DNA from: a virus
Taxonomy: Duplodnaviria; Caudoviricetes
Length of the DNA: 34,119 bases
IMG/VR virus record: IMGVR_UViG_3300010048_000027
Coordinates: 1-34,119 of that record
Strand: one strand, 5' to 3'
This document shows, piece after piece, positions 2,866 through 20,264 of the stretch. The first letter of the stretch is position 1. Each line of letters opens with the position of its first letter. A program made the translations under genes and the position numbers. Below the pieces are notes generated by a model. That model searched no databases and was not told the DNA's origin. It worked only from the letters and a program-made list of their open reading frames with translations.

Positions 2866-4185
2866 TTATGCTGCCTCCCTCAGTTGGACGATGTTGCTGG
2901 GCTTGCGGTTGCCGAGCAATGAGTGTGCCGACGGCGAGCCGGGCGGCAGCAACAGATCTGCCCACAGTTCAGCCAACGGCCGGATCTTGCGCTCGTTTCG
3001 TGCTTGGTGCGTCCGGTTGTAGAGTGTGGCGACCCCGTCCTGAACGCGGTGGGCGATCATCGCCTGGAGCAGAGCGTCCGCTTGCGGATGATCAGAGTGC
3101 TCCCCGGTGATCGTCACCATGGTCGCTCGCCAGCCGTGTGCGACATGCACGCCCTTGCCCAGGACGAGGGCCAACTGGCGAGGAAGTGTGACGCGCCCAT
3201 AGGGCTGGTGTGCTCGTTCGACGTGACCTGGGAAGACATATACCGCGCCGGCTGGAGCCACGCTGCGGGCTGCCTCCAGCACGTCCATCGCCTGCGGGCT
3301 TAGGAAGACCGTGTGGGCCTTCTTCTTCCCCTGCGCGCCCTTCATCCTGCCGGCTGGTATGCGCCACACAGAGCCATCTATTTCGTCCCAGCGGGCACAC
3401 CTGACCTCAGTCGGCCGCAGCCCAGTGAGCGCGCCGAAGCGGTGAAGCAGTTTCAGCATCGCGCTGCAATTCGATGTCTCGAAACGCCGCAGGACATCAC
3501 GCGCCTCCTCGATCGTGCCCACGGCTGGCTGCTTCTCGCTCGCCGGCAGCCTGATCGCCTTACGCAGTCCGCTCGCCGGGTTAATCTCGACCAGCCCTGC
3601 GATCACCAGCGTGTCGAACAGGGCCACGAGATGCATGCGCACATTGTCGGCCTGATGCTTGCCGCTCTTCGTCTCGGCGGCTCTGAGCATCGGCAGGATG
3701 TCGCGCGGGCGCACGCCGGCGACTGGCATCTGGCCGATTGCTGGGAAGACGTGAGCGGTGAGACGCTGCATCGTCTGGGTGGCGTAGCTCGTGCTCCAGT
3801 TCCCCGACCCGATGTTGGACGCGTGCCACTCCAGCGCCTCGCCTTGCACCGTGCGTGCGTTGCTCTCCTGGCGCTCTTGCTTGGCAGCTTTCGCTTCGGC
3901 CACCGGGTCGGCGCCCATCGACACGTCGTGGCGCAGGAGTTCGCGGGCGAGGCGCGCTTCCTTCAGCGACATCGCCGGGTGCTTGCCGAGGATCTTGGTG
4001 TGGTGCTTGCCGCGCACGGTGTAGGCGACCATCCAGGCCTTCTGTCGGGGCGAGACCTCGAGGTAGAGCCCTTTGCCGTCCGACATGCGGTAGATGTCGG
4101 GCTTGTGCTTCGCGGCGTTCACCTGGGATTGGGTGAGCGGCTTGGCCGGTGGACGATAGCCGCTCTGATTGTCAGTGGCTGACAC
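2866..4185 (-). CDS. int: Tyrosine recombinase/integrase, P4-like with N-terminal arm-binding domain
   Basis: YRMSDGKGLYLEVSP..LGKHPAMSLKEAR arm domain; catalytic LTGLRPTEV (R), HGWR (HxxR), AH..Y; WRIPAGRMK motif. Confidence 0.95.
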   Translation of the reverse strand: MSATDNQSGYRPPAKPLTQSQVNAAKHKPDIYRMSDGKGLYLEVSPRQKAWMVAYTVRGKHHTKILGKHPAMSLKEARLARELLRHDVSMGADPVAEAKAAKQERQESNARTVQGEALEWHASNIGSGNWSTSYATQTMQRLTAHVFPAIGQMPVAGVRPRDILPMLRAAETKSGKHQADNVRMHLVALFDTLVIAGLVEINPASGLRKAIRLPASEKQPAVGTIEEARDVLRRFETSNCSAMLKLLHRFGALTGLRPTEVRCARWDEIDGSVWRIPAGRMKGAQGKKKAHTVFLSPQAMDVLEAARSVAPAGAVYVFPGHVERAHQPYGRVTLPRQLALVLGKGVHVAHGWRATMVTITGEHSDHPQADALLQAMIAHRVQDGVATLYNRTHQARNERKIRPLAELWADLLLPPGSPSAHSLLGNRKPSNIVQLREAA

Positions 4186-4228
4186 GCTGTTTCCTTCTCA
4201 GTTCGGGGCGGGGTTTGTTACGCTCTAC

Positions 4229-4456
4229 TACCCCCCATTACCCCCCATGTTGCCCGGCCCAGGATGGGTCCGGTTGCCCAAAGGGCGATAGTCTTGTCCC
4301 ACGTAACCCCTTGATCTACAAGTGTGTTGGTGCCGGTTAGCGTAGCTTGTGGAGCATGGCTGCGTTGCTCTTCTGAATGCTTCCTAGAGACTAAGTTATT
4401 GATTTCGCTTAGGTTCTCCTTTGGGCGGTGCTGCTACCCAGCATTCTCCCCACCAT
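4229..4456. other. Probable attP region (arm-type repeats and IHF sites)
   Basis: Non-coding DNA 5' of int; tandem TACCCCCCAT at 4229-4248 and related copies at 4435-4456; IHF consensus WATCAANNNNTTR on the minus strand at 4392-4404 (exact) and 4304-4316 (1 mismatch). Confidence 0.55.
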
Positions 4457-4547
4457 TTTGTTGATGCCGGTTGGGCTCGCCAACACTCCTTGACCATTTC
4501 GGTCATGTGGCTGAGTGTGATGGGTATGCTCATTGAGGATAAGTGTG

Positions 4548-4739
4548 ATGGGTGAGGATATCAGCGAATTGGTGGCTTCGATCCAACGGGATCTGACTAT
4601 GATGCAGAGACTGCTGGACGGTGCTGGGGATAATCGATCCCGATTGTTGGCAATTCAGGCACTCGCTGGATTGATTGCTGCCAATATCGGTGCATGGGAT
4701 GCCGGTATCCGTCGTTCAACTACAATCAAGCAGGAGTAA
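4548..4739 (+). CDS. Hypothetical protein
   Basis: 63-aa helical ORF with GAGG upstream; lower GC than its flanks. Confidence 0.45.
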   Translation: MGEDISELVASIQRDLTMMQRLLDGAGDNRSRLLAIQALAGLIAANIGAWDAGIRRSTTIKQE

Positions 4740-4929
4740 ACAAATGGCAACGCGCTGGCTGCACGCTCTTGCGCGGCTCAGGGAGACACGCCAGCACCCA
4801 CCACCGATCGCTCTCAGTGATCAGATGCGGCATCTGGCTGCGCATCGTCTCGCGCCGACCGCTGTCTCGACGGCGTATGTAGATCAGCCACCACTGACCC
4901 GCTGGCGTGTCATGGATTGCGTTGCTCAT
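4726..4929 (-). CDS. Hypothetical protein directly downstream of pentamer array 1
   Basis: RBS GGAGG followed by ATG at 4929; MSNAIHDTPAGQWWLIYIRRR.., 67 aa. Confidence 0.55.
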   Translation of the reverse strand: MSNAIHDTPAGQWWLIYIRRRDSGRRETMRSQMPHLITESDRWWVLACLPEPRKSVQPARCHLFTPA

Positions 4930-4940
4930 GTGGCCTCCGG

Positions 4941-5055
4941 TTGCGTTGCGTTGCGTTGCGGAGCGAAGCGGTGCGTTGCGGAGCGAAGCGCTGCGGAGCG
5001 AAGTGCTGCGGTGCGATGCGTGGCGTGGCGTAGCGCGGAGCCGTGTAGCGGAGCG
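4941..5055 (-). repeat. Pentamer array 1, (CRC-NN)x23; candidate guide ncRNA
   Basis: Plus strand reads NN-GCG/GTG/GAG in unbroken 5-nt phase for 115 nt; fills the intergenic gap. Confidence 0.9.
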
Positions 5056-5060
5056 ATGGT

Positions 5061-5570
5061 TCATTTCGCCGCCCGTTTAGGCGACAGCGATATCATCCAT
5101 TCGACGGCAGAAAACACCGGCAGATCGTTTGAGGTGCCGCGTGCCACCTTTTCGATCCGGCGCTGCGTGCTCCTGGCCAGGCTTTCGCGGGCGATCTCCC
5201 GAATGATGCTGTCGGTGGCAAACCTCGCCTGCTGGTGGATGTCCAGCTGGTCCAGTTCCACCACGTCGGCCTGACGCGCGCCGGCGCTGAGCTTGTTCCT
5301 CGCGCCAGACAGGAACCACCTGCGTTGCCGATCCACGATCTCCGGATCGTTCAGCCGATACAGGCATACACTCGGCGGAATACAGACCCAGACCTGGGCG
5401 TGCTCGCGCTCCAGAAGCCTGCGTGCATAAATGAGTTGATGCGTGCGTGGCGTGATTGGGACACCAACGATATTGCCCAGTTCGCGATACGGGACGCGCG
5501 CGCCTTTGTCGTGGGTGGCGAGATAGCGCACCAGGCCGGCGGTTGTCTCCGAGCGTTCAAATCGTTTCAT
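5061..5570 (-). CDS. Winged-helix-like protein associated with the RAMP gene and arrays
   Basis: 169 aa; VPYRELGNIVGVP..LIYARRLLEREH..VWVC..LYRL fits an HTH plus wing pattern, then a helical domain; flanked by arrays 1 and 2. Confidence 0.65.
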   Translation of the reverse strand: MKRFERSETTAGLVRYLATHDKGARVPYRELGNIVGVPITPRTHQLIYARRLLEREHAQVWVCIPPSVCLYRLNDPEIVDRQRRWFLSGARNKLSAGARQADVVELDQLDIHQQARFATDSIIREIARESLARSTQRRIEKVARGTSNDLPVFSAVEWMISLSPKRAAK

Positions 5571-5580
5571 GGGTCACCTG

Positions 5581-5827
5581 CGACGTTGCGTTGCGGAGCG
5601 GGGTGCTGCGGAGCGCGGAGCCGCGTAGCGGAGCGATGCGAAGCGAGGCGCAGAGAAGCGCGGCGCGGCGCAGCGTTGCGTTGCGGCGCGGCGTTGCGCG
5701 GCGTTGCGGGGCGTTGCGGGGCGTTGCGGGGCGAGGCGGGGCGACGCGCAGAGAAGCGCGGCTGCGGCGCGGCGTTGCGGGGCGTTGCGGGGCGACGCGG
5801 GGCGAGGCGGCGAGACGCGCTGCGGCG
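5581..5827 (-). repeat. Pentamer array 2, about 50 CRC-NN units in three phase blocks; candidate guide ncRNA
   Basis: 5-nt periodic G(C/T/A)G-NN on the plus strand; phase breaks at 5683-5688 and 5761-5769; begins right after the RAMP stop codon. Confidence 0.9.
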
Positions 5828-6415
5828 TTAGACATTCAGATCCTGCCATTCGACCTTGGTGACCCGGAACCTGCCATTGCTGCCGCCGTTGGCTGGCCGG
5901 TAGCGACCGATGCCGACGATCATCCCGCCGCTTTTCACATGGTGCTCGAAGATCTCCGGCGTGATGATGTCATCCACGATCGTGAACTCGGCAATGCCGG
6001 ACCATTTATCAAACGATGGAAAGCGGCGTTTGACACGCTTGCCAGAGCCTCTGACGCCATCGGCATTCGCATTGATGGTGACCATTGCCGCGTCCTGCGG
6101 TGTGATCGGCTTCCCGTTCGTTAATGGCATGTCGCCATTGCAGATGAACCCACTGGTGAAGAAGGACTTTTATGTGGCGCCGCGACGGCCGGGTACCTTC
6201 TCGCCCAGTTTCTGCGCGGCGAGATCAATGCACTGTTTCAGCGCCATTGCCGGCACGCACACCTGGCCGCCACCATTGGTGGTGCATTTGCTGCGCCAGG
6301 TGCGGATGTCGTAATCCTCATGTGATTCACGATCCAGCTTCGGATCTTCGTGTTGTGCGGACTGGCTGTATGGGGAGCCTGGGATGCTCTCGATGTAGAC
6401 CCTGCAGATTTTCAT
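5828..6415 (-). pseudogene. Stand-alone Cas7/RAMP-like (Vipr-like) gene with one in-frame TAA at 6170-6172
   Basis: RBS AGGAGA at 6421-6426; MKICRVYIESIPGSPYSQS..VCVPAMALKQCI..GAT*KSFFTSG..RRFPSFDKWSGIAEFTI..GMIVGIGRYRPANGGSNGRFRV; the two listed ORFs are in the same frame; C-terminal Gly-rich loop typical of RAMPs. Confidence 0.8.
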
Positions 6416-6426
6416 TTGGTTCTCCT

Positions 6427-6607
6427 GCGTTGCGTTGCGGTGCGTGGTGGTGCGGTGCGTTGCGGGGTGCGGCGGTGCGTGGTGGTGCGGTGCGGAGCGT
6501 TGCGGGGCGTAGCGTGGCGTTGAGGTGCGCGGCGATGCGAAGCGATGCGCAGCGGTGTGGAGCGGTGTGGAGCGGTGCGTGGCGGTGCGGTGCGTGGTGG
6601 TGCGGCG
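6427..6607 (-). repeat. Pentamer array 3, 36 CRC triplets and 35 NN in one phase; candidate guide ncRNA
   Basis: Unbroken 5-nt phase from 6427 to 6604 plus an extra CGC; lies between an upstream stop codon and the RAMP RBS. Confidence 0.9.
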
Positions 6608-6614
6608 AATGGTT

Positions 6615-6824
6615 TCACGATGCTTCCAGTTTTTGCTTGAGATCATCCGACACAAAACGCAGCAACCCCGGCAGCCGCTCGAGAAACTGCCGGTCCAGCG
6701 CACCGATCGACACGTCACTGCCCTTATTGCCGCCGATCACCAGCACGACGATCGCGGACGCGTCAGTGGCCCAGGCTGCCCACTGGCAGATGTCGTCATA
6801 GCGACCCAGCCCCAGCGCGCTCAC
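6615..6824 (-). CDS. Hypothetical phage protein
   Basis: GTG start overlapping the upstream TGA; ..GRYDDICQWAAWATDASAIVVLVIGGNKGSDVS.., 69 aa. Confidence 0.6.
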   Translation of the reverse strand: MSALGLGRYDDICQWAAWATDASAIVVLVIGGNKGSDVSIGALDRQFLERLPGLLRFVSDDLKQKLEAS

Positions 6825-6904
6825 AGCGCCGCCAGGACGGCGCACAGCACGATCCCCCCCCATGCCACGCCGAACAACGCCAACGCCGCCAGCACGCGTC
6901 TCAT
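6821..6904 (-). CDS. 27-aa hydrophobic peptide
   Basis: MRRVLAALALFGVAWGGIVLCAVLAAL; coupled at both ends (ATGA and GTGA overlaps). Confidence 0.5.
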   Translation of the reverse strand: MRRVLAALALFGVAWGGIVLCAVLAAL

Positions 6905-7182
6905 GGCTCCCTACGGGCTCCTTCCCATGCTTCAATGTCTGCCGTTGCCCAGCGCGGTTGCTGGGCGCTCAGATGCAGCGCTGGACGGGGGAACCGCCCT
7001 TCCTCCATCCAGCGATAGATCGTGCCGGTGCTGACCTGCACCCGTTCAGCGACGTCGCGCGACGTCAGGTAACGGCCTTCCGCCGGCACCTGTGGTGGCA
7101 GTGGCTCTGGCGCTAGGGCATCTACCAGGACATCGACTATGCGGTTGAGCGCCTGGCGTAATTCATAACGATCGACATTCAT
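6901..7182 (-). CDS. AlpA-family excisionase/regulator
   Basis: YLTSRDVAERVQVSTGTIYRWMEEGRFPRP..PRWATADIEAW. Confidence 0.9.
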   Translation of the reverse strand: MNVDRYELRQALNRIVDVLVDALAPEPLPPQVPAEGRYLTSRDVAERVQVSTGTIYRWMEEGRFPRPALHLSAQQPRWATADIEAWEGARREP

Positions 7183-7532
7183 CGCTTTAGAGCCTCGACC
7201 TGGGCGACGATGGCGGGCGGGACTTCGCCCCGTTCCGCCGCCCTCTGGAATTGCTGATTGATCGCGGTGCGGACGACGGTGGTCAGTTGCTGGCCGCGCA
7301 GGCGGGCGAGCCAGTCCAACTGGGCTCGTGTGTAAGCACCGACGCGGACGTTCAGTATTATGGGTTGCGGAGCTCTATCCGTCGCTGCTCGAGGTAGTCG
7401 TTGAGCTCCTCCTGTTCTGTGGGCAGCAATTGGTGCACTCGGCTCCTCCACTCGGCTGAGCTGTTGAGCTCCGCCAACCCGATCAAATCCAGTCGCTTGG
7501 CCTTTTCCTTTAGCGCTGCTAGTAGATCCCAT
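7179..7532 (-). CDS. Ribbon-helix-helix-like protein (start uncertain)
   Basis: LNVRVGAYTRAQLDWLARLRGQQLTTVVRTAI fits the RHH pattern; the 5' part overlaps the SSAP gene. Confidence 0.5.
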   Translation of the reverse strand: MGSTSSAKGKGQATGFDRVGGAQQLSRVEEPSAPIAAHRTGGAQRLPRAATDRAPQPIILNVRVGAYTRAQLDWLARLRGQQLTTVVRTAINQQFQRAAERGEVPPAIVAQVEALKR

Positions 7533-8335
7533 GTTTCCTCCTCACTGACGCCGGCTGGCAGTGGTTCGTCGGCCGGCGCCAGTTTTTCGTACGCTGCCTT
7601 GATCTGTGCGCGGATGTCGCGCTGGATGCGGAACGGTGCGGCGCCTGCTTCCGTGCCCAGTGCGGTCTGCACGGACGCGCGGTCTGCGATCTTGCGCACG
7701 TCATCCCATGTTTGGGCTGCATCGAGTGCGTGCTGCAGGCTGGTTTTCCAGCGCTCCCACTGATCCGGCTTAGCGCCATAGACTTCGGTTGCCTGCTGAT
7801 CGCTCACGGCCTTGCGGCCTGGTGGCGGCGTTGGCTCGCCGGCGTCGAATGTCTGGATGCTGCCGAGCGTGTCGAGCTCGCTCTCGTCCATGAAGCCAAG
7901 GCCGCAGATGCTGAGCGTCACCCGGCGCTTGGCTTTCGTTATGCATTTCATCAATGCATTGGCTTTGCTCTCGGACTGCAGTCGACCGATTGTCACGGCG
8001 CCGATGTCTTCGTCACTGCGGCCATCTGGGGTGCTGGCTTTGACTGTCACGACGTATACATCGCCATCCAGCCGCTGATCGGTGACCGACAGGGACACTT
8101 TGTGGATGCGCCGCAACTGGTCGCTGCCGTCACGAGTGAAGTACGGCACGATCTCGGATCCGAGCCGTAGGAACCTGATAGGCCGCGTGAATGGATTAAG
8201 GCCGATTGTTTGACAGACGCGTGAGACGTATTCGATGCGCTGGCCGGGCGTAAGTTTGGACAGGTCGCCGGTGGCGAGCACCGCCTCGAGGGTGGCGGTG
8301 GAAACGGCAGTGGGCGCGGTGGCGACGTCGCTCAT
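7358..8335 (-). CDS. Single-strand annealing recombinase (Redbeta/RecT/Rad52-like)
   Basis: GLNPFTRPI..ANALMKCITKAKRRVTLSICGLGFMDESEL; adjacent to a Gp157-like gene. Confidence 0.75.
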   Translation of the reverse strand: MSDVATAPTAVSTATLEAVLATGDLSKLTPGQRIEYVSRVCQTIGLNPFTRPIRFLRLGSEIVPYFTRDGSDQLRRIHKVSLSVTDQRLDGDVYVVTVKASTPDGRSDEDIGAVTIGRLQSESKANALMKCITKAKRRVTLSICGLGFMDESELDTLGSIQTFDAGEPTPPPGRKAVSDQQATEVYGAKPDQWERWKTSLQHALDAAQTWDDVRKIADRASVQTALGTEAGAAPFRIQRDIRAQIKAAYEKLAPADEPLPAGVSEEETWDLLAALKEKAKRLDLIGLAELNSSAEWRSRVHQLLPTEQEELNDYLEQRRIELRNP

Positions 8336-8874
8336 CAGCGGCTCCTGACGGTGAGCACAAGCGGCGGGTTGGACCACTCGGCCGGGGTATCGGGCTCGCC
8401 TGCGGCCAAGGCGTCGCTCAGTGCTATCTTGTTGGCCTCGTAGGTCACGCGCTGGAAGCGCTCAGGCAGCTGCTCTGCTGGCAGGGTGGGGATGACGTGG
8501 GGGCGTCCGGGGCTGATGGACGCGGTGTATTCGGGGCGTTCGAGGCTCCGGATATCCGCCTCGGCGAGCAAGTCGCGGGCGATTTTGCGGCGGCGGACGG
8601 CGGCGGCGACGAAGCGGTCGGCGCGGATGGCGAGATCGGCGCGGCGGTGCTGGACGGCTTCGGCGTCGGCCTCGTAATCGAGCGCGCCGGTGATCAGGCG
8701 GTCGATCAGGGCGAACGGGTCGCCTTCGGCCTCGCCTTCCATCATGTCGGCCCAGAGTTTGGGGTCTTCTTCGGCCATGTTGGGCTCGATGGCGCGCAGT
8801 TCGGTGCCGGCGCGGGCGAGCACGCGGCGGACGGCGGCGGTGGCGGCGGGGCTGGGTGGGGCATGGCGTGCCAT
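8335..8874 (-). CDS. Siphovirus Gp157-family protein
   Basis: DMMEGE, long coiled coil, LERPEYTASI..LPERF..NKIALSDALAAGE..LTVR. Confidence 0.75.
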   Translation of the reverse strand: MARHAPPSPAATAAVRRVLARAGTELRAIEPNMAEEDPKLWADMMEGEAEGDPFALIDRLITGALDYEADAEAVQHRRADLAIRADRFVAAAVRRRKIARDLLAEADIRSLERPEYTASISPGRPHVIPTLPAEQLPERFQRVTYEANKIALSDALAAGEPDTPAEWSNPPLVLTVRSR

Positions 8875-8913
8875 GGCATTCGCTCCCTGCTGTGGTGGCA
8901 GGATAGGCACGAC

Positions 8914-8930
8914 GTTGCCTGAAAGGCAAC
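8914..8930. promoter_or_regulatory. Operator GTTGCC-N5-GGCAAC over a probable leftward early promoter
   Basis: Perfect inverted half-sites; minus-strand TTGCCT-N18-TATCCT (8929-8900). Confidence 0.7.
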
Positions 8931-9135
8931 CCCTGGAGAGGCGCTGAGATTTCTGATTGACGTCAATCGCGGCTGGGCTATGATTTGCAGCTTACGAACG
9001 GACCTAAAGGGCAACGCAAACAGCTAGCCCATGCAACCTATGGCTTCAGTTTTCGGGAGCGTCGGGCCGTGAAGAACAAGCAGGATTATCCGTCGCGATT
9101 TTCGCAGCATGTCGCTGAGGACATGGAGCGGCTGG

Positions 9136-9462
9136 CTATGGCTCGCGAGCAGGGAGAACGCGGAAAGTCAGATCTGGAGCATGCAGGCGATGGAGCGGCT
9201 CGACCAGTTCCATCGGCATCCCCGGCGTCACGATCCCCCGGATCAGATAGTCCATCGAAGCGCCGGAAGCGTCGCAGATCGTAACCAGGATATCCAGGTT
9301 TGGCAGGCGTGTGCCGCTCTCCCACTTGTTGAGCGTCATCCTAGTGATGCGCAATCGCTTGGCCCATTCGACCTGGGAGTGGCCGAGGGCTTCGCGCAGC
9401 CAGCGCAGGCGGTTGCCGATCGCGGCGAGGCGTTCGTCGGTGACGGTGTCCTTGCGGGGCAT
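9136..9462 (-). CDS. XRE-family HTH repressor (CI-like, no peptidase domain)
   Basis: IGNRLRWLREALGHSQVEWAKRLRITRMTLNKWESGTRLP..SMDYLIRG; divergent from the cro-like gene. Confidence 0.9.
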   Translation of the reverse strand: MPRKDTVTDERLAAIGNRLRWLREALGHSQVEWAKRLRITRMTLNKWESGTRLPNLDILVTICDASGASMDYLIRGIVTPGMPMELVEPLHRLHAPDLTFRVLPAREP

Positions 9463-9510
9463 GCCGTTGGTATAAGCGTCGAGCACGAGCGCCTCCAAGC
9501 GCAATCTGTG

Positions 9511-9527
9511 GTTGCCCTTTAGGCAAC
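9511..9527. promoter_or_regulatory. Operator GTTGCC-N5-GGCAAC
   Basis: GTTGCCCTTTAGGCAAC in the cI-cro gap. Confidence 0.75.
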
Positions 9528-9595
9528 TGATCGTGCCGCAATTTGTATCCAATGACAAGCGCAATGATACGCGGATTTTGTGGCCTTGCTGAGGC

Positions 9596-9625
9596 TTGAC
9601 GTGTTGCCTGTGGGGCAACTAACCT
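9596..9625 (+). promoter_or_regulatory. Rightward promoter with an operator between -35 and -10
   Basis: TTGACG (9596-9601), 18 nt containing the operator at 9603-9619, then TAACCT (9620-9625); ATG 6 nt later suggests a leaderless mRNA. Confidence 0.7.
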
Positions 9626-16973: not shown

Positions 16974-19900
16974 ATGGCTCGTCCTAAGCGCGGCGACGCG
17001 GACGTTCTCAGAGAAGCGAAGAAGCGATTTGAGCGGTGTGTGACGTGGGAGTCGACGGCGCGGAGCAATGCGCGGATTGACCGGCGTTTTGCCAATGGGG
17101 ACGCGTATAACAACTGGCAATGGGATCAGACGGTACGGACGGCGCGTGGGGACCGGCCGTGTTTGACGCACAACAAGGTGCGGCAGCACAATCTGCAGAT
17201 TATCAATGATGCGCGGCAGAACAAGCAGTCGATTAAGGTGACGCCGGTAGGCGGGAATGCGTCGTATGAGGCGGCGCAGGTGTTTGAGGGTATTATCAGG
17301 CGGATAGAATATCAGAGTAAGGCGATTGACGCCTACAGCACGGCGACGTTTCATCAGGTTGAGACTGGTATTGGGTATGTGTCGGTGGACACGGATTATG
17401 TTGACCAGGATGGCAGTTTTGAGCAGGAGATTTACATTCGGCGGCATGCGGATCCGGAGACGATCTACATGGATCCGGATTGCAAGCTGTATGACAAGTC
17501 GGATGCGCGATTTGCGTTTGTATTTGAGGACATACCGAGAGAGGAGTGGGAAGCGGAGCACGGTGAGAACAAGGCGCCACCGGGGCCGGCGCTGGACATG
17601 CCGCGCAGCAACGACTGGGTGACCAAGGATCATGTTCGGGTGGCGATCTACTGGCGTCGCAACGAGGACGAGGACAAATTGCATATGCTGCGTGACGGGC
17701 GTGTCATCAAGGAGGGTGACATGGACGATGCGCAGATGGAGATGCATCGGCCGTTGATTGAGCGGACGCGGACGACGAAAGAGACGAGTGTGGAGTGGTT
17801 TAGGATTGAGGGAGACAAGATAGCGGATCGGGGCGAGTGGGCGGGGATTTACATACCGATTGTGCCCTGGATTGGCGAGGAGGTGGTGATTGACGGTCTG
17901 CTGGATCGCAAGGGGCACACGAGAAGCCAGATTGATGCGCAGCGGATCTATAATTACTGGGCCGCAACGAGTTTGCATACCCCCCTGCCGACGCCAACCG
18001 GCTGGACGACGATGGGCGAAGTCGAGGCGGGGGATCTGCTGCTGGATGAGCAGGGGCGGCCGACGACGGTTCTAGGCAAGAGCCCAGTGTATCTTCACAG
18101 CCGGTGTTTCCGCGTTGAGTTTGACGATGGCTCGCATGTTATTGCCGATGCGGGCCATCAGTGGCAGGTGGAGGAACGCGGCAAGGCGATTGCTGGCGGA
18201 TGGCAATGGACCGATAAGCAGGTGACGACGGAGCAACTGACACCTGGCACGCACTTCATTCACATGGCAAAGCCGCTGGACTTGCCAGAAGCGGATTTAC
18301 TTATCGAGCCTTATCTGCTCGGCATGTGGCTTGGCAATGGCCGCACGGCGGCAGGAACCATCACCAACCATACGCAAGATGTCGATGAGACGCGGCAATA
18401 TCTGATGGAACTCGGTTACCGCTTGGGTCCGGTGTATAGGGACAACAACGCGAGCACATTCGGCGTCTATGAACTGGCTGGCGAATTACGCGAATTGGGC
18501 TTGCTTGGCAACAAGCACATTCCGCAGGCATATTTGCGCGCCTCGGCGGCCCAGCGCTGGGCGTTGCTGCAAGGATTGATGGACACCGATGGTTCGGCCA
18601 ACCGGCGTCTGTTCACCTGTGAGTTCACGACCTCGCGGCCAGCTTTAGCTGAAGGCTTTGCGGAATTGCTTAGTTCCTTGGGGCTGAAATCGACGCATCT
18701 GCGTCGAGCTGCGACGCGGCGAAAAATGCCGGGGGGCGAGTGGTCTGATGTGCTCGCGCATGATCAATTCACGTTCTCTGCGCCGCCGGATGTGCAGGTG
18801 TTCCGGTTGCGGCGCAAGCGAGCTGTGCAGGAATACGAGCGCACGACGCATTGGCGACGCACCAGGCGGTTCCGCATCAAGGCGGTGTTGCCGGTGCCGT
18901 CTGAGCCAGTGCAATGCTTAGGAGTAGATGCACCCTCGCATCTATTTCTGTGCGGTCCTTCGATGGTGCCGACCCATAACTCAGCGGCGGTGGAGCAGGT
19001 AGCGCTGCAGAGCAAGGTTCCGTATGTGGGTGTGGTGCAGGCGTTTGAGGGGTTTGAGAATTATTGGAACACGGCGAACCTGAAGAATTTTGCGTATTTG
19101 CCGTATAATGGGAAGGATGACGACGGCAATCCGTTGCCACCGCCGCAGCGAGCGCCGCCACCCGAGATGGCGAGCGCGTATATCCAGGGGATGCAGATTG
19201 CCAGGCAGGATCTGCTGGATGTGACGGGGCAATATCAGGCTGAGTTGGGCATGCCATCAAACGAGCGCAGTGGCGTGGCCATTCAGCAGCGCCAGCGTCA
19301 GGGCGACAATGCCACGTATCACTACATAGACAACCAGAGTAAGGCGATCCGCCAAGTTGGGCGCATTCTGCTCGACCTTATTCCCAAGATTTACGACACC
19401 ACCAGGGTCATCAAGATCCTGGCGCAGGACGGAACGGATCAGGAGGTGGTATCGACGCCGAATGCGCCGGCCGCGCATCAGCGTGTGCGGATGACGCCGC
19501 AGGGGCCGGTGCCGATCGGGCCGCAACAGGCGGGAGCGGACCAGGAAGAGGACAATCTGCCGGATCCCCGGATCATATTTAACCCGACGGTGGGTAAGTA
19601 TGATGTGGAGGCGGACGTTGGGCCGACGTTTGGCACGCAGCGTCAGGAGGCTGCGAACGCGTTCACGCAGATCTTGGCGAATAATCCGGCTGCGTTCGCG
19701 ATTGTTGGCGACTTTTGGGCGAAATATCAGGATTTTCCTGGGGCGGAAGAGTTGGCGCAACGACTGAAGCGTGGCTTGCCGGCGCAATACAGGCCAGGGC
19801 CGGATCCGCAGCTGCAACAGGTGATCCAGGCGGGTCAGCAGATGCAGCAGCAGGCTCAGCAGCTGCTGAAGCAGGCCGATGCGGAGATTGCGCGGCTGCA

Positions 19901-20264
19901 GGCGGACAATATGCGGCTGAAAGAGCAGGGCGCCGAGAAGCACGCATCGATTGCGATCGATGAATACAAGGCCGAGACGGAGCGATTGAAGGCGGTGGGG
20001 CAGATTGATCCGGCATCGCTGCAGGTGATTGTGCGTAAGATGGTGGGCGAGATGTTGCAGACGGACTTGCCGCACTGGCTCGAGCACCATGGGGCATTGG
20101 AGCAGGCGTTCCAGGCAAATATGCAGCAAGCGCAGCCGCAGGCCCCGAACGGGAATGGCAATGGCGGGCAGGCGCCAGCGGGCAATGGTGGGGCGCCGGG
20201 CAATGGCGGCATGCCACAGCCACCGAATGGCGGCGGGATGCCGCAGCCGGCGGCAGGACCATAG
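16974..20264 (+). CDS. P22-like portal protein containing an intein (about 757 aa after splicing)
   Basis: RPCLTHNKV, GIGY, YIPIVP..G, DAQRIYNYW, SGVAIQQRQRQG, GKYDV..DVGPTFGTQRQE; C-terminal Gln-rich coiled coil. Confidence 0.93.
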   Translation: MARPKRGDADVLREAKKRFERCVTWESTARSNARIDRRFANGDAYNNWQWDQTVRTARGDRPCLTHNKVRQHNLQIINDARQNKQSIKVTPVGGNASYEAAQVFEGIIRRIEYQSKAIDAYSTATFHQVETGIGYVSVDTDYVDQDGSFEQEIYIRRHADPETIYMDPDCKLYDKSDARFAFVFEDIPREEWEAEHGENKAPPGPALDMPRSNDWVTKDHVRVAIYWRRNEDEDKLHMLRDGRVIKEGDMDDAQMEMHRPLIERTRTTKETSVEWFRIEGDKIADRGEWAGIYIPIVPWIGEEVVIDGLLDRKGHTRSQIDAQRIYNYWAATSLHTPLPTPTGWTTMGEVEAGDLLLDEQGRPTTVLGKSPVYLHSRCFRVEFDDGSHVIADAGHQWQVEERGKAIAGGWQWTDKQVTTEQLTPGTHFIHMAKPLDLPEADLLIEPYLLGMWLGNGRTAAGTITNHTQDVDETRQYLMELGYRLGPVYRDNNASTFGVYELAGELRELGLLGNKHIPQAYLRASAAQRWALLQGLMDTDGSANRRLFTCEFTTSRPALAEGFAELLSSLGLKSTHLRRAATRRKMPGGEWSDVLAHDQFTFSAPPDVQVFRLRRKRAVQEYERTTHWRRTRRFRIKAVLPVPSEPVQCLGVDAPSHLFLCGPSMVPTHNSAAVEQVALQSKVPYVGVVQAFEGFENYWNTANLKNFAYLPYNGKDDDGNPLPPPQRAPPPEMASAYIQGMQIARQDLLDVTGQYQAELGMPSNERSGVAIQQRQRQGDNATYHYIDNQSKAIRQVGRILLDLIPKIYDTTRVIKILAQDGTDQEVVSTPNAPAAHQRVRMTPQGPVPIGPQQAGADQEEDNLPDPRIIFNPTVGKYDVEADVGPTFGTQRQEAANAFTQILANNPAAFAIVGDFWAKYQDFPGAEELAQRLKRGLPAQYRPGPDPQLQQVIQAGQQMQQQAQQLLKQADAEIARLQADNMRLKEQGAEKHASIAIDEYKAETERLKAVGQIDPASLQVIVRKMVGEMLQTDLPHWLEHHGALEQAFQANMQQAQPQAPNGNGNGGQAPAGNGGAPGNGGMPQPPNGGGMPQPAAGP
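17964..18980 (+). mobile_element. Class 3 intein (339 aa) with LAGLIDADG homing-endonuclease domain
   Basis: Starts ATSLHTPLPTPTGWTTMG; block B ADAGHQW; block F VQCLGV; ends VPTHN/S; LLGMWLGNG and LLQGLMDTDG motifs. Confidence 0.9.

Follow-up and report, generated by a model that had tools for sequence, protein, structure and literature searches.

A probable VIPR-type locus built on a C-based scaffold in a temperate soil phage

What role might a Cas7-like RAMP gene play in a phage when the gaps around it are filled with arrays of five-nucleotide units? The question is raised by the virus record IMGVR_UViG_3300010048_000027, a 34,119-base stretch of DNA that was analyzed here in its entirety (the window) and is estimated to be ~57% complete. 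An RNA-guided system related to VIPR had been proposed for it in the original prediction. VIPR, a programmable DNA-binding system of small size, was described in 2026 and has been tested with GGY guides only (10.64898/2026.04.26.720920). Overall, we put at about 85% the probability that this is a VIPR-type locus with a C-based scaffold, consisting of a RAMP-fold gene (vipr), a Vap1-like partner gene (vap), and three arrays of CDC/NN units (a C-[G/A/T]-C triplet plus a variable dinucleotide NN, read on the coding strand), with RNA-guided silencing of genes of competing phages as its likely function.

The vipr gene (5828..6415, minus strand) has 195 codons, encodes a single-RRM RAMP protein with the motifs quoted in the original prediction, and is the only Vipr-like gene in the record. 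A structure model was made for P0002, an intact relative that is 87% identical to the window Vipr (predicted local distance difference test score, pLDDT, 87.5), and contains the RRM core, thumb and G-loop of a small RAMP protein. The best Foldseek matches of this model are type VII Cas7 and Csm3 (E about 1e-6), and its comparison with Csm3 (VIA) gave Z 11.1 with a root-mean-square deviation of 4.3 over 157 residues, in agreement with the RAMP fold that had been predicted. No Vipr chain was present among the fold-search matches, which is uninformative because the library ends at 2026-04-08. Pfam, NCBIfam and PADLOC hold no family for vipr, and together with Rfam returned nothing for vipr, vap or the arrays, the sole match being phrog_4652, of unknown function; matches in the ESM Atlas were restricted to unnamed viral clusters.

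In terms of relationship to known Vipr proteins, 536 homologs were found. A profile built from 73 locus proteins, distant members among them, gave the Vipr of phage SUSP1 a score of 26 bits (E 6e-5, Z=177,635) and also matched Vipr genes adjoining GGY arrays in the phages LESphi2 (E 3e-12) and DSL-LC04 (E 3e-9). The relationship proposed from the window alone is thus supported by the profile of the clade. The intermediate L088 protein retrieves Felixounavirus/SUSP1-like genes by tblastn. The same program found no match to P0002 in phage or plasmid collections, and a single further match, a distant one, in 401 genomes belonging to the same class as G001. In a tree of 107 proteins, the window Vipr belongs to a group of 101 (support 0.91) that is separate from the GGY Viprs.

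The three arrays of the window all lie on the minus strand, and each starts just past a stop codon and ends at the ribosome-binding site of the next gene, which it reaches through two to four CGCAA units. Array A1 (6425-6604) comprises 36/36 C[GAT]C-NN units in a single phase, and its 3′ end, CGCAA CGCAA, leads into the vipr ribosome-binding site. Array A2 (5586-5824) lies between vipr and vap and consists of phase blocks of 12, 15 and 20 units, separated by two phase breaks and containing an internal duplication. Array A3 (4941-5055), between vap and an open reading frame (ORF) of 67 amino acids, has 23/23 units and four terminal CGCAA. The scaffold bases are without error in all window units, and the longest CDC/NN run outside A1–A3 is 5 units, a length that 100 dinucleotide-shuffled versions of the window do not exceed. 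The claim that three consecutive gaps are filled exactly by pentamers therefore holds for A1 and A3, which are perfect, and needs amending for A2, where the gap is filled in three phases. The GGY triplet of VIPR guides that the original prediction named is not the one used here, where the scaffold is CGC, CAC or CTC. Because of the 5-nt period and the phase breaks, a protein-coding reading of the arrays was rejected. Rfam gave no match to the arrays and no ribozyme match, and a structured 3′ tail was not detected: with a tool that is blind to pseudoknots, predicted folding of the array ends is poorer than that of shuffles (z +1.3, +1.5 and +3.1).

Association of such arrays with vipr is a feature of the clade as a whole. 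For all locus counts and target sets the window's own record (L026) was excluded, and duplicate arrays and targets were merged. On this basis a CDC array lies on the same strand and no more than 1.5 kb away for 83/88 distinct vipr genes, which confirms that homologs co-occur with adjacent 5-nt arrays; of the other five genes, two have GRC-type arrays and three have no arrays, two of these being on cut contigs. Conversely, a search with the array motif alone found 150 viral loci, of which 79 (55 contig groups) have 4-kb flanks and enter the count, with 71/150 left out for want of long flanks. Among the 55 groups, vipr is present in 43, vipr or vap in 46, and neither in 9. Arrays detected with a C[AG]C rule supply 6008 units, the window included, in which the triplets are CGC (76%), CAC (12%) and CTC (7%); NN has an entropy of 3.89 of 4 bits, and AA is over-represented among the final three units of the arrays. 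The relatives' arrays reach 79 units, are spacer-less, and are interleaved among genes. They also vary between near-identical strains, as judged from joints and loose ends of contigs. In some relatives (L001, L016, L020 and L023) a U-rich linker follows CGCAA-CG and recurs between the arrays; the window has no such linker, which may be a processing site.

The gene is also not solo, as had been stated, since a conserved Vap1-like partner gene lies downstream of it. This gene, vap (5061..5570, minus strand), encodes 169 amino acids with a predicted winged helix, long helices and weak similarity to SUSP1 Vap1. It has 140 homologs and is close to vipr in 57/61 loci that have enough downstream DNA. 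An iterated vap profile scored SUSP1 Vap1 at 14 bits, versus 2.5 bits for the best unrelated ORF. The structure model shows a winged-helix-like head plus long helices, for which Foldseek gave weak matches (E>=2e-3) to winged helix-turn-helix (wHTH) regulators.

With respect to scaffold recognition, the structural report on SUSP1 Vipr assigns guanine reading to H17, D177 and R138 and places R179 in a pyrimidine pocket (10.64898/2026.04.26.720927). In the window Vipr and most of its clade the first three are replaced by Q, R and F, and R179 is invariant. These changes would fit a loss of guanine reading in which position 3 stays a pyrimidine. At the D177 position, R is found in 100/102 proteins encoded beside CDC arrays, and D in 4/4 encoded beside GGY arrays. 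A switch from G to C scaffold driven by D177R alone was rejected as insufficient, because L088 and L098 share R and F yet carry GRC or mixed GGC/CGC arrays. These clade members (L098:430-950, with mixed, hairpin-separated GGC/CGC arrays, and L088:1290-1375, with GRC) are candidate intermediates of the scaffold change. Distant Viprs outside the CDC clade, with N or T at the D177 position, are also found beside CGC arrays (L306:2795-4050 and L337:480-2194), possibly as independent scaffold switches; the L337 arrays terminate in hairpin tails.

For decoding, the NN strings were compared with array-masked related-phage DNA at 0-3 skipped bases per unit, alongside shuffled controls; this test does not discriminate between the two possible guide strands. 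In a first set (283 arrays of at least 10 units, 695 kb), a 10-unit match of at least 19/20 was seen in 10 arrays at skip 1, compared with 0 arrays at skips 0, 2 and 3 and 0-1 in shuffles. In a pooled test (local score +1/-2, threshold at least 17), 16/310 arrays reached the threshold at skip 1, versus 2, 0 and 2 at skips 0, 2 and 3 and 2, 1 and 2 in shuffles. When 258 further arrays were tested separately against 2.35 Mb, 7 reached the threshold at skip 1, versus 0, 2 and 0 at skips 0, 2 and 3 and 2 and 1 in shuffles. Matches of 24/24 and 25/26 occur in this set, and its seven include one of low complexity (L401) and one self-match (L269). Together the two sets, tested on 2.0-2.35 Mb of related-phage DNA, give 23/568 versus 14/3150 for controls (Fisher p 8e-11, with arrays that are partly non-independent), and skips of 0, 2 and 3 were rejected. 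The skipped base is the wobble base in 19/21 distinct matches versus 94/232 shuffled ones under a longest-ORF rule (p 3e-6); L034 is in wobble register by this rule only, and without it the figure is 18/21 (p 3e-5). Eleven of the 21 are antisense to the gene and 8 sense, and DNA is the likelier target because matches fall on both strands.

The targeted genes, named by eye from translations except for vipr and vap, comprise vipr, vap, terminases, primase, helicase/polymerase-like, Gp157-like and portal-like genes and serine recombinases. The target classes given for SUSP1-family guides in a later report mirror these (10.64898/2026.10.15.759431). Arrays of other phages are themselves matched by two guides (24/26 and 18/18; controls <=15). 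One conserved serine-recombinase helix is matched on opposite strands by two unrelated guides, L023:11996-12185 on L252:5407 and L284:5689-5778 on L327:4085 (24/26 and 21/22). Matched stretches are 9-15 units long, so that long arrays likely hold several guides. The guide at L269:3931-4045 agrees at 19/20 with codons for the G-loop in the vipr gene of its own phage, and the same vipr site is matched at 24/24 by a related guide in a different phage (L405:236-345); self/non-self tuning or autoregulation is a proposed reading of this pair.

A number of observations weigh against a functional VIPR locus of this kind, some bearing on the clade and others on the window copy. Set directly against the SUSP1 Vipr chain 36pp, the clade gives no significant match, either pairwise (phmmer E 1.6) or with the first profile (E 0.32). 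In 974 kb near capsid/terminase relatives no match of at least 19/20 was found, versus 0 and 2 in shuffles (at the looser threshold of at least 18, there were 18 versus 5-12), and 541 kb of remaining genome parts gave 1 match versus 0-1. More than 95% of the arrays have no target assigned. The five array blocks of the window score 10-15 on the 2.35 Mb of phage DNA, which is the shuffle range, and its guides gave no match above shuffles in 102 kb of arrays; block 5765-5824 does match L160 at 17/18, but this was likewise set aside as within shuffle range. The gapped code proposed for rival-phage targets thus stands for guides of the clade, and no target above shuffles was found for the window's own in the DNA covered. 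Array A1 has the lowest NN entropy among 56 arrays of 30-42 units, and this low entropy and the broken phase of A2 may reflect decay. The coding strand as guide strand is, in addition, our deduction from sequence, and sequencing runs listed as carrying the phage include no RNA dataset. The antisense reading (GHG/NN) was judged unlikely, as it would place a purine in the pyrimidine pocket and the arrays of GGY relatives lie on the coding strand. Finally, the vipr frame as assembled is broken by an in-frame TAA at codon 82 (6170-6172).

This stop codon is central to an alternative that we consider doubtful though deserving of attention, in which the clade has a genuine VIPR system and the window copy is a Vipr-null remnant, its arrays either decaying or acting as solo guides that borrow the Vipr of a co-infecting phage. 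Phages of the latter type, null for vipr and with solo vrRNAs, are on record (10.64898/2026.10.15.759431), and the state of A1 and A2 and the lack of targets for the window guides would fit either fate. The stop column, however, is Y or F in 117/117 homologs, and contigs of near-identical strains from runs X2 and X3 have a sense codon at the site. In run X1, the best holder, no contig spans the site and flanking depth is 2.5-6. Because of these three findings we regard the TAA as an assembly error or a rare allele. The intact state of vap and of every ribosome-binding site in the window copy, and the perfect scaffold bases throughout, also argue against a remnant.

Two other explanations concern what the arrays do. 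Targeting of mRNA by antisense pairing and translation block would agree with the 11/21 strong matches that are antisense, with the RNA-targeting nature of the nearest folds (Csm3 and type VII Cas7), and with the alignment of the SUSP1 Vipr DNA-clamp region (K33, R39) to a gap in this clade. We find it improbable, as strong sense-strand matches (24/24, 20/20, 21/22 and 23/26) could not be paired by mRNA, and the SUSP1 work states that Vipr requires a DNA third strand (10.64898/2026.04.26.720927). Still less probable is the view of the arrays as mere autoregulatory protein-binding operators or slippage microsatellites that hold no targeting information. Units are locally duplicated, and array ends abut ribosome-binding sites in 122/359 cases versus 232/3000 random 40-mers; against this, NN entropy is near its maximum, and foreign-gene matches are specific to skip 1 and in wobble register. 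Adjacency of a third of the array ends to ribosome-binding sites would nonetheless allow translational autoregulation, which may be an added role and not a substitute for targeting.

Under the VIPR-type reading that we favor, a leftward early transcript most likely bears the arrays together with vipr and vap, early expression, which the original prediction placed under repressor control, being suggested by position in the leftward operon alone. By analogy with the SUSP1 papers, one Vipr would bind each 5-nt unit and coat the array RNA as a filament, burying the CDC triplet and presenting NN. Some 10-12 successive NN pairs could then read double-stranded DNA with one base skipped each (every third base). 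As described for SUSP1, a triplex R-loop would form and block transcription of rival phage genes, with Vap presumably assisting the silencing. A bolder version, which we offer as speculation and hold to be unlikely in its entirety, is a large soil-phage branch whose CDC scaffold is read by a Q/R/F surface orthogonal to GGY. Its guides would never be excised as tailed small RNAs, and would instead remain in long spacer-less arrays within the vipr-vap mRNA, with several 10-12-unit guides per filament; by coating the array as far as the ribosome-binding site, Vipr would throttle its own translation and that of Vap, and the window copy would be a Vipr-null cheater feeding guides to the Vipr of its rivals.

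With respect to classification, the window locus is, judged on its gene and array sequences, VIPR in the broad sense and a member of a C-scaffold clade, and is not type II proper, because it has no GGY and no structured tail and its guanine-reading residues are replaced. It resembles the type II VIPR of SUSP1 and a Pseudomonas fulva prophage (10.64898/2026.04.26.720920) in its ~195-residue single-RRM RAMP protein, in the wHTH-like Vap1-type partner immediately downstream, and in its coding-strand 5-nt arrays. The guides of its relatives further share with SUSP1 the 1-nt skip code, wobble register, use of both strands, and rival-phage targets that include vipr, arrays and recombinases. It differs from SUSP1 in having C-[G/A/T]-C in place of GGY, in the exchange of H17, D177 and R138 (R179 being common to both), in a shorter helical bundle, in (CGCAA)2-4 ends that run into the next ribosome-binding site where SUSP1 has a pseudoknot tail, and in the spacer-less, gene-interleaved layout of its arrays. 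Alternative VIPR repeats are on record as NNNGG, YNNNG and NNNNG, and CGC/NN read as CNNCG fits YNNNG of that description (10.64898/2026.04.26.720920). A further report lists 21 clusters whose triplets are non-canonical, GAC/NN and CAC/NN among them, beside Vipr-like folds (10.64898/2026.10.21.760802). In the accessible portions of this literature no CGC/CDC scaffold is named and no non-GGY targets are decoded, and the published logos and type tables may include this clade. With Class 1 CRISPR backbone RAMPs (Csm3, type VII Cas7, Cmr4) the protein has the RRM core, thumb and G-loop in common. Unlike Class 1 CRISPR-Cas, the locus has a 5-nt gapped code and not contiguous spacers, and a CRISPR array, a direct-repeat family, a cas operon or any other cas family was not found in the record (~57% complete), as the original prediction had noted.

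The phage itself is a temperate soil phage. Its minus strand carries integrase, excisionase-like, Gp157/Gam-like and cI-like genes, and its plus strand terminase, portal and capsid genes (named by eye from translations). The VIPR cassette sits in a leftward block (2866..9618, minus strand) between the excisionase-like gene (6901-7182) and the tyrosine integrase gene (2866-4185), with the Gp157/Gam-like gene at 8335-8880 and the cI-like repressor gene at 9136-9618, all on the minus strand. The 67-residue ORF 3′ of A3 (4726..4929, minus strand) matches no family and is at most a putative member of the VIPR system. A promoter scan returned a single site, on the opposite strand, a number equal to chance expectation. 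At window position 4738, contigs from three runs diverge from the window sequence, and in one near-identical contig the end of vipr is fused to an array tail and vap is absent; both observations suggest that the cassette varies as a module. The phage is present in another record as well (L112, L222; 99.96-100% identity), which closes the genome at ~40.7 kb, and the 6.6 kb absent from the window record hold an orphan fourth CDC array, between tail-region genes and far from vipr (L222:9277-9321, minus strand, equivalent to L112:14061-14106). Elsewhere in the window, a portal-like gene of 1096 amino acids (16974-20264) seems, as judged by eye, to be interrupted by an intein with homing endonuclease, and beyond the integrase lies a 216-residue, proline-rich, repetitive ORF with PxHPIVIP motifs (1915-2565). 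The nearest Vipr relatives in genomes sit in metagenome-assembled genomes titled Acetobacteraceae (81%) and Xanthobacteraceae (75%), so that the host is likely an alphaproteobacterium.

Since the same skip code is seen with another scaffold and other RNA-contact residues, this large clade provides a candidate orthogonal VIPR for multiplexed repression and, in its natural variation, a means of testing which residues recognize the scaffold. Its tail-less, gene-interleaved arrays pose the question of how guides are delimited. For the phages themselves, the decoded guides offer a way to read conflicts between soil phages, with targets in vipr, vap, arrays, terminases, primases and recombinases.

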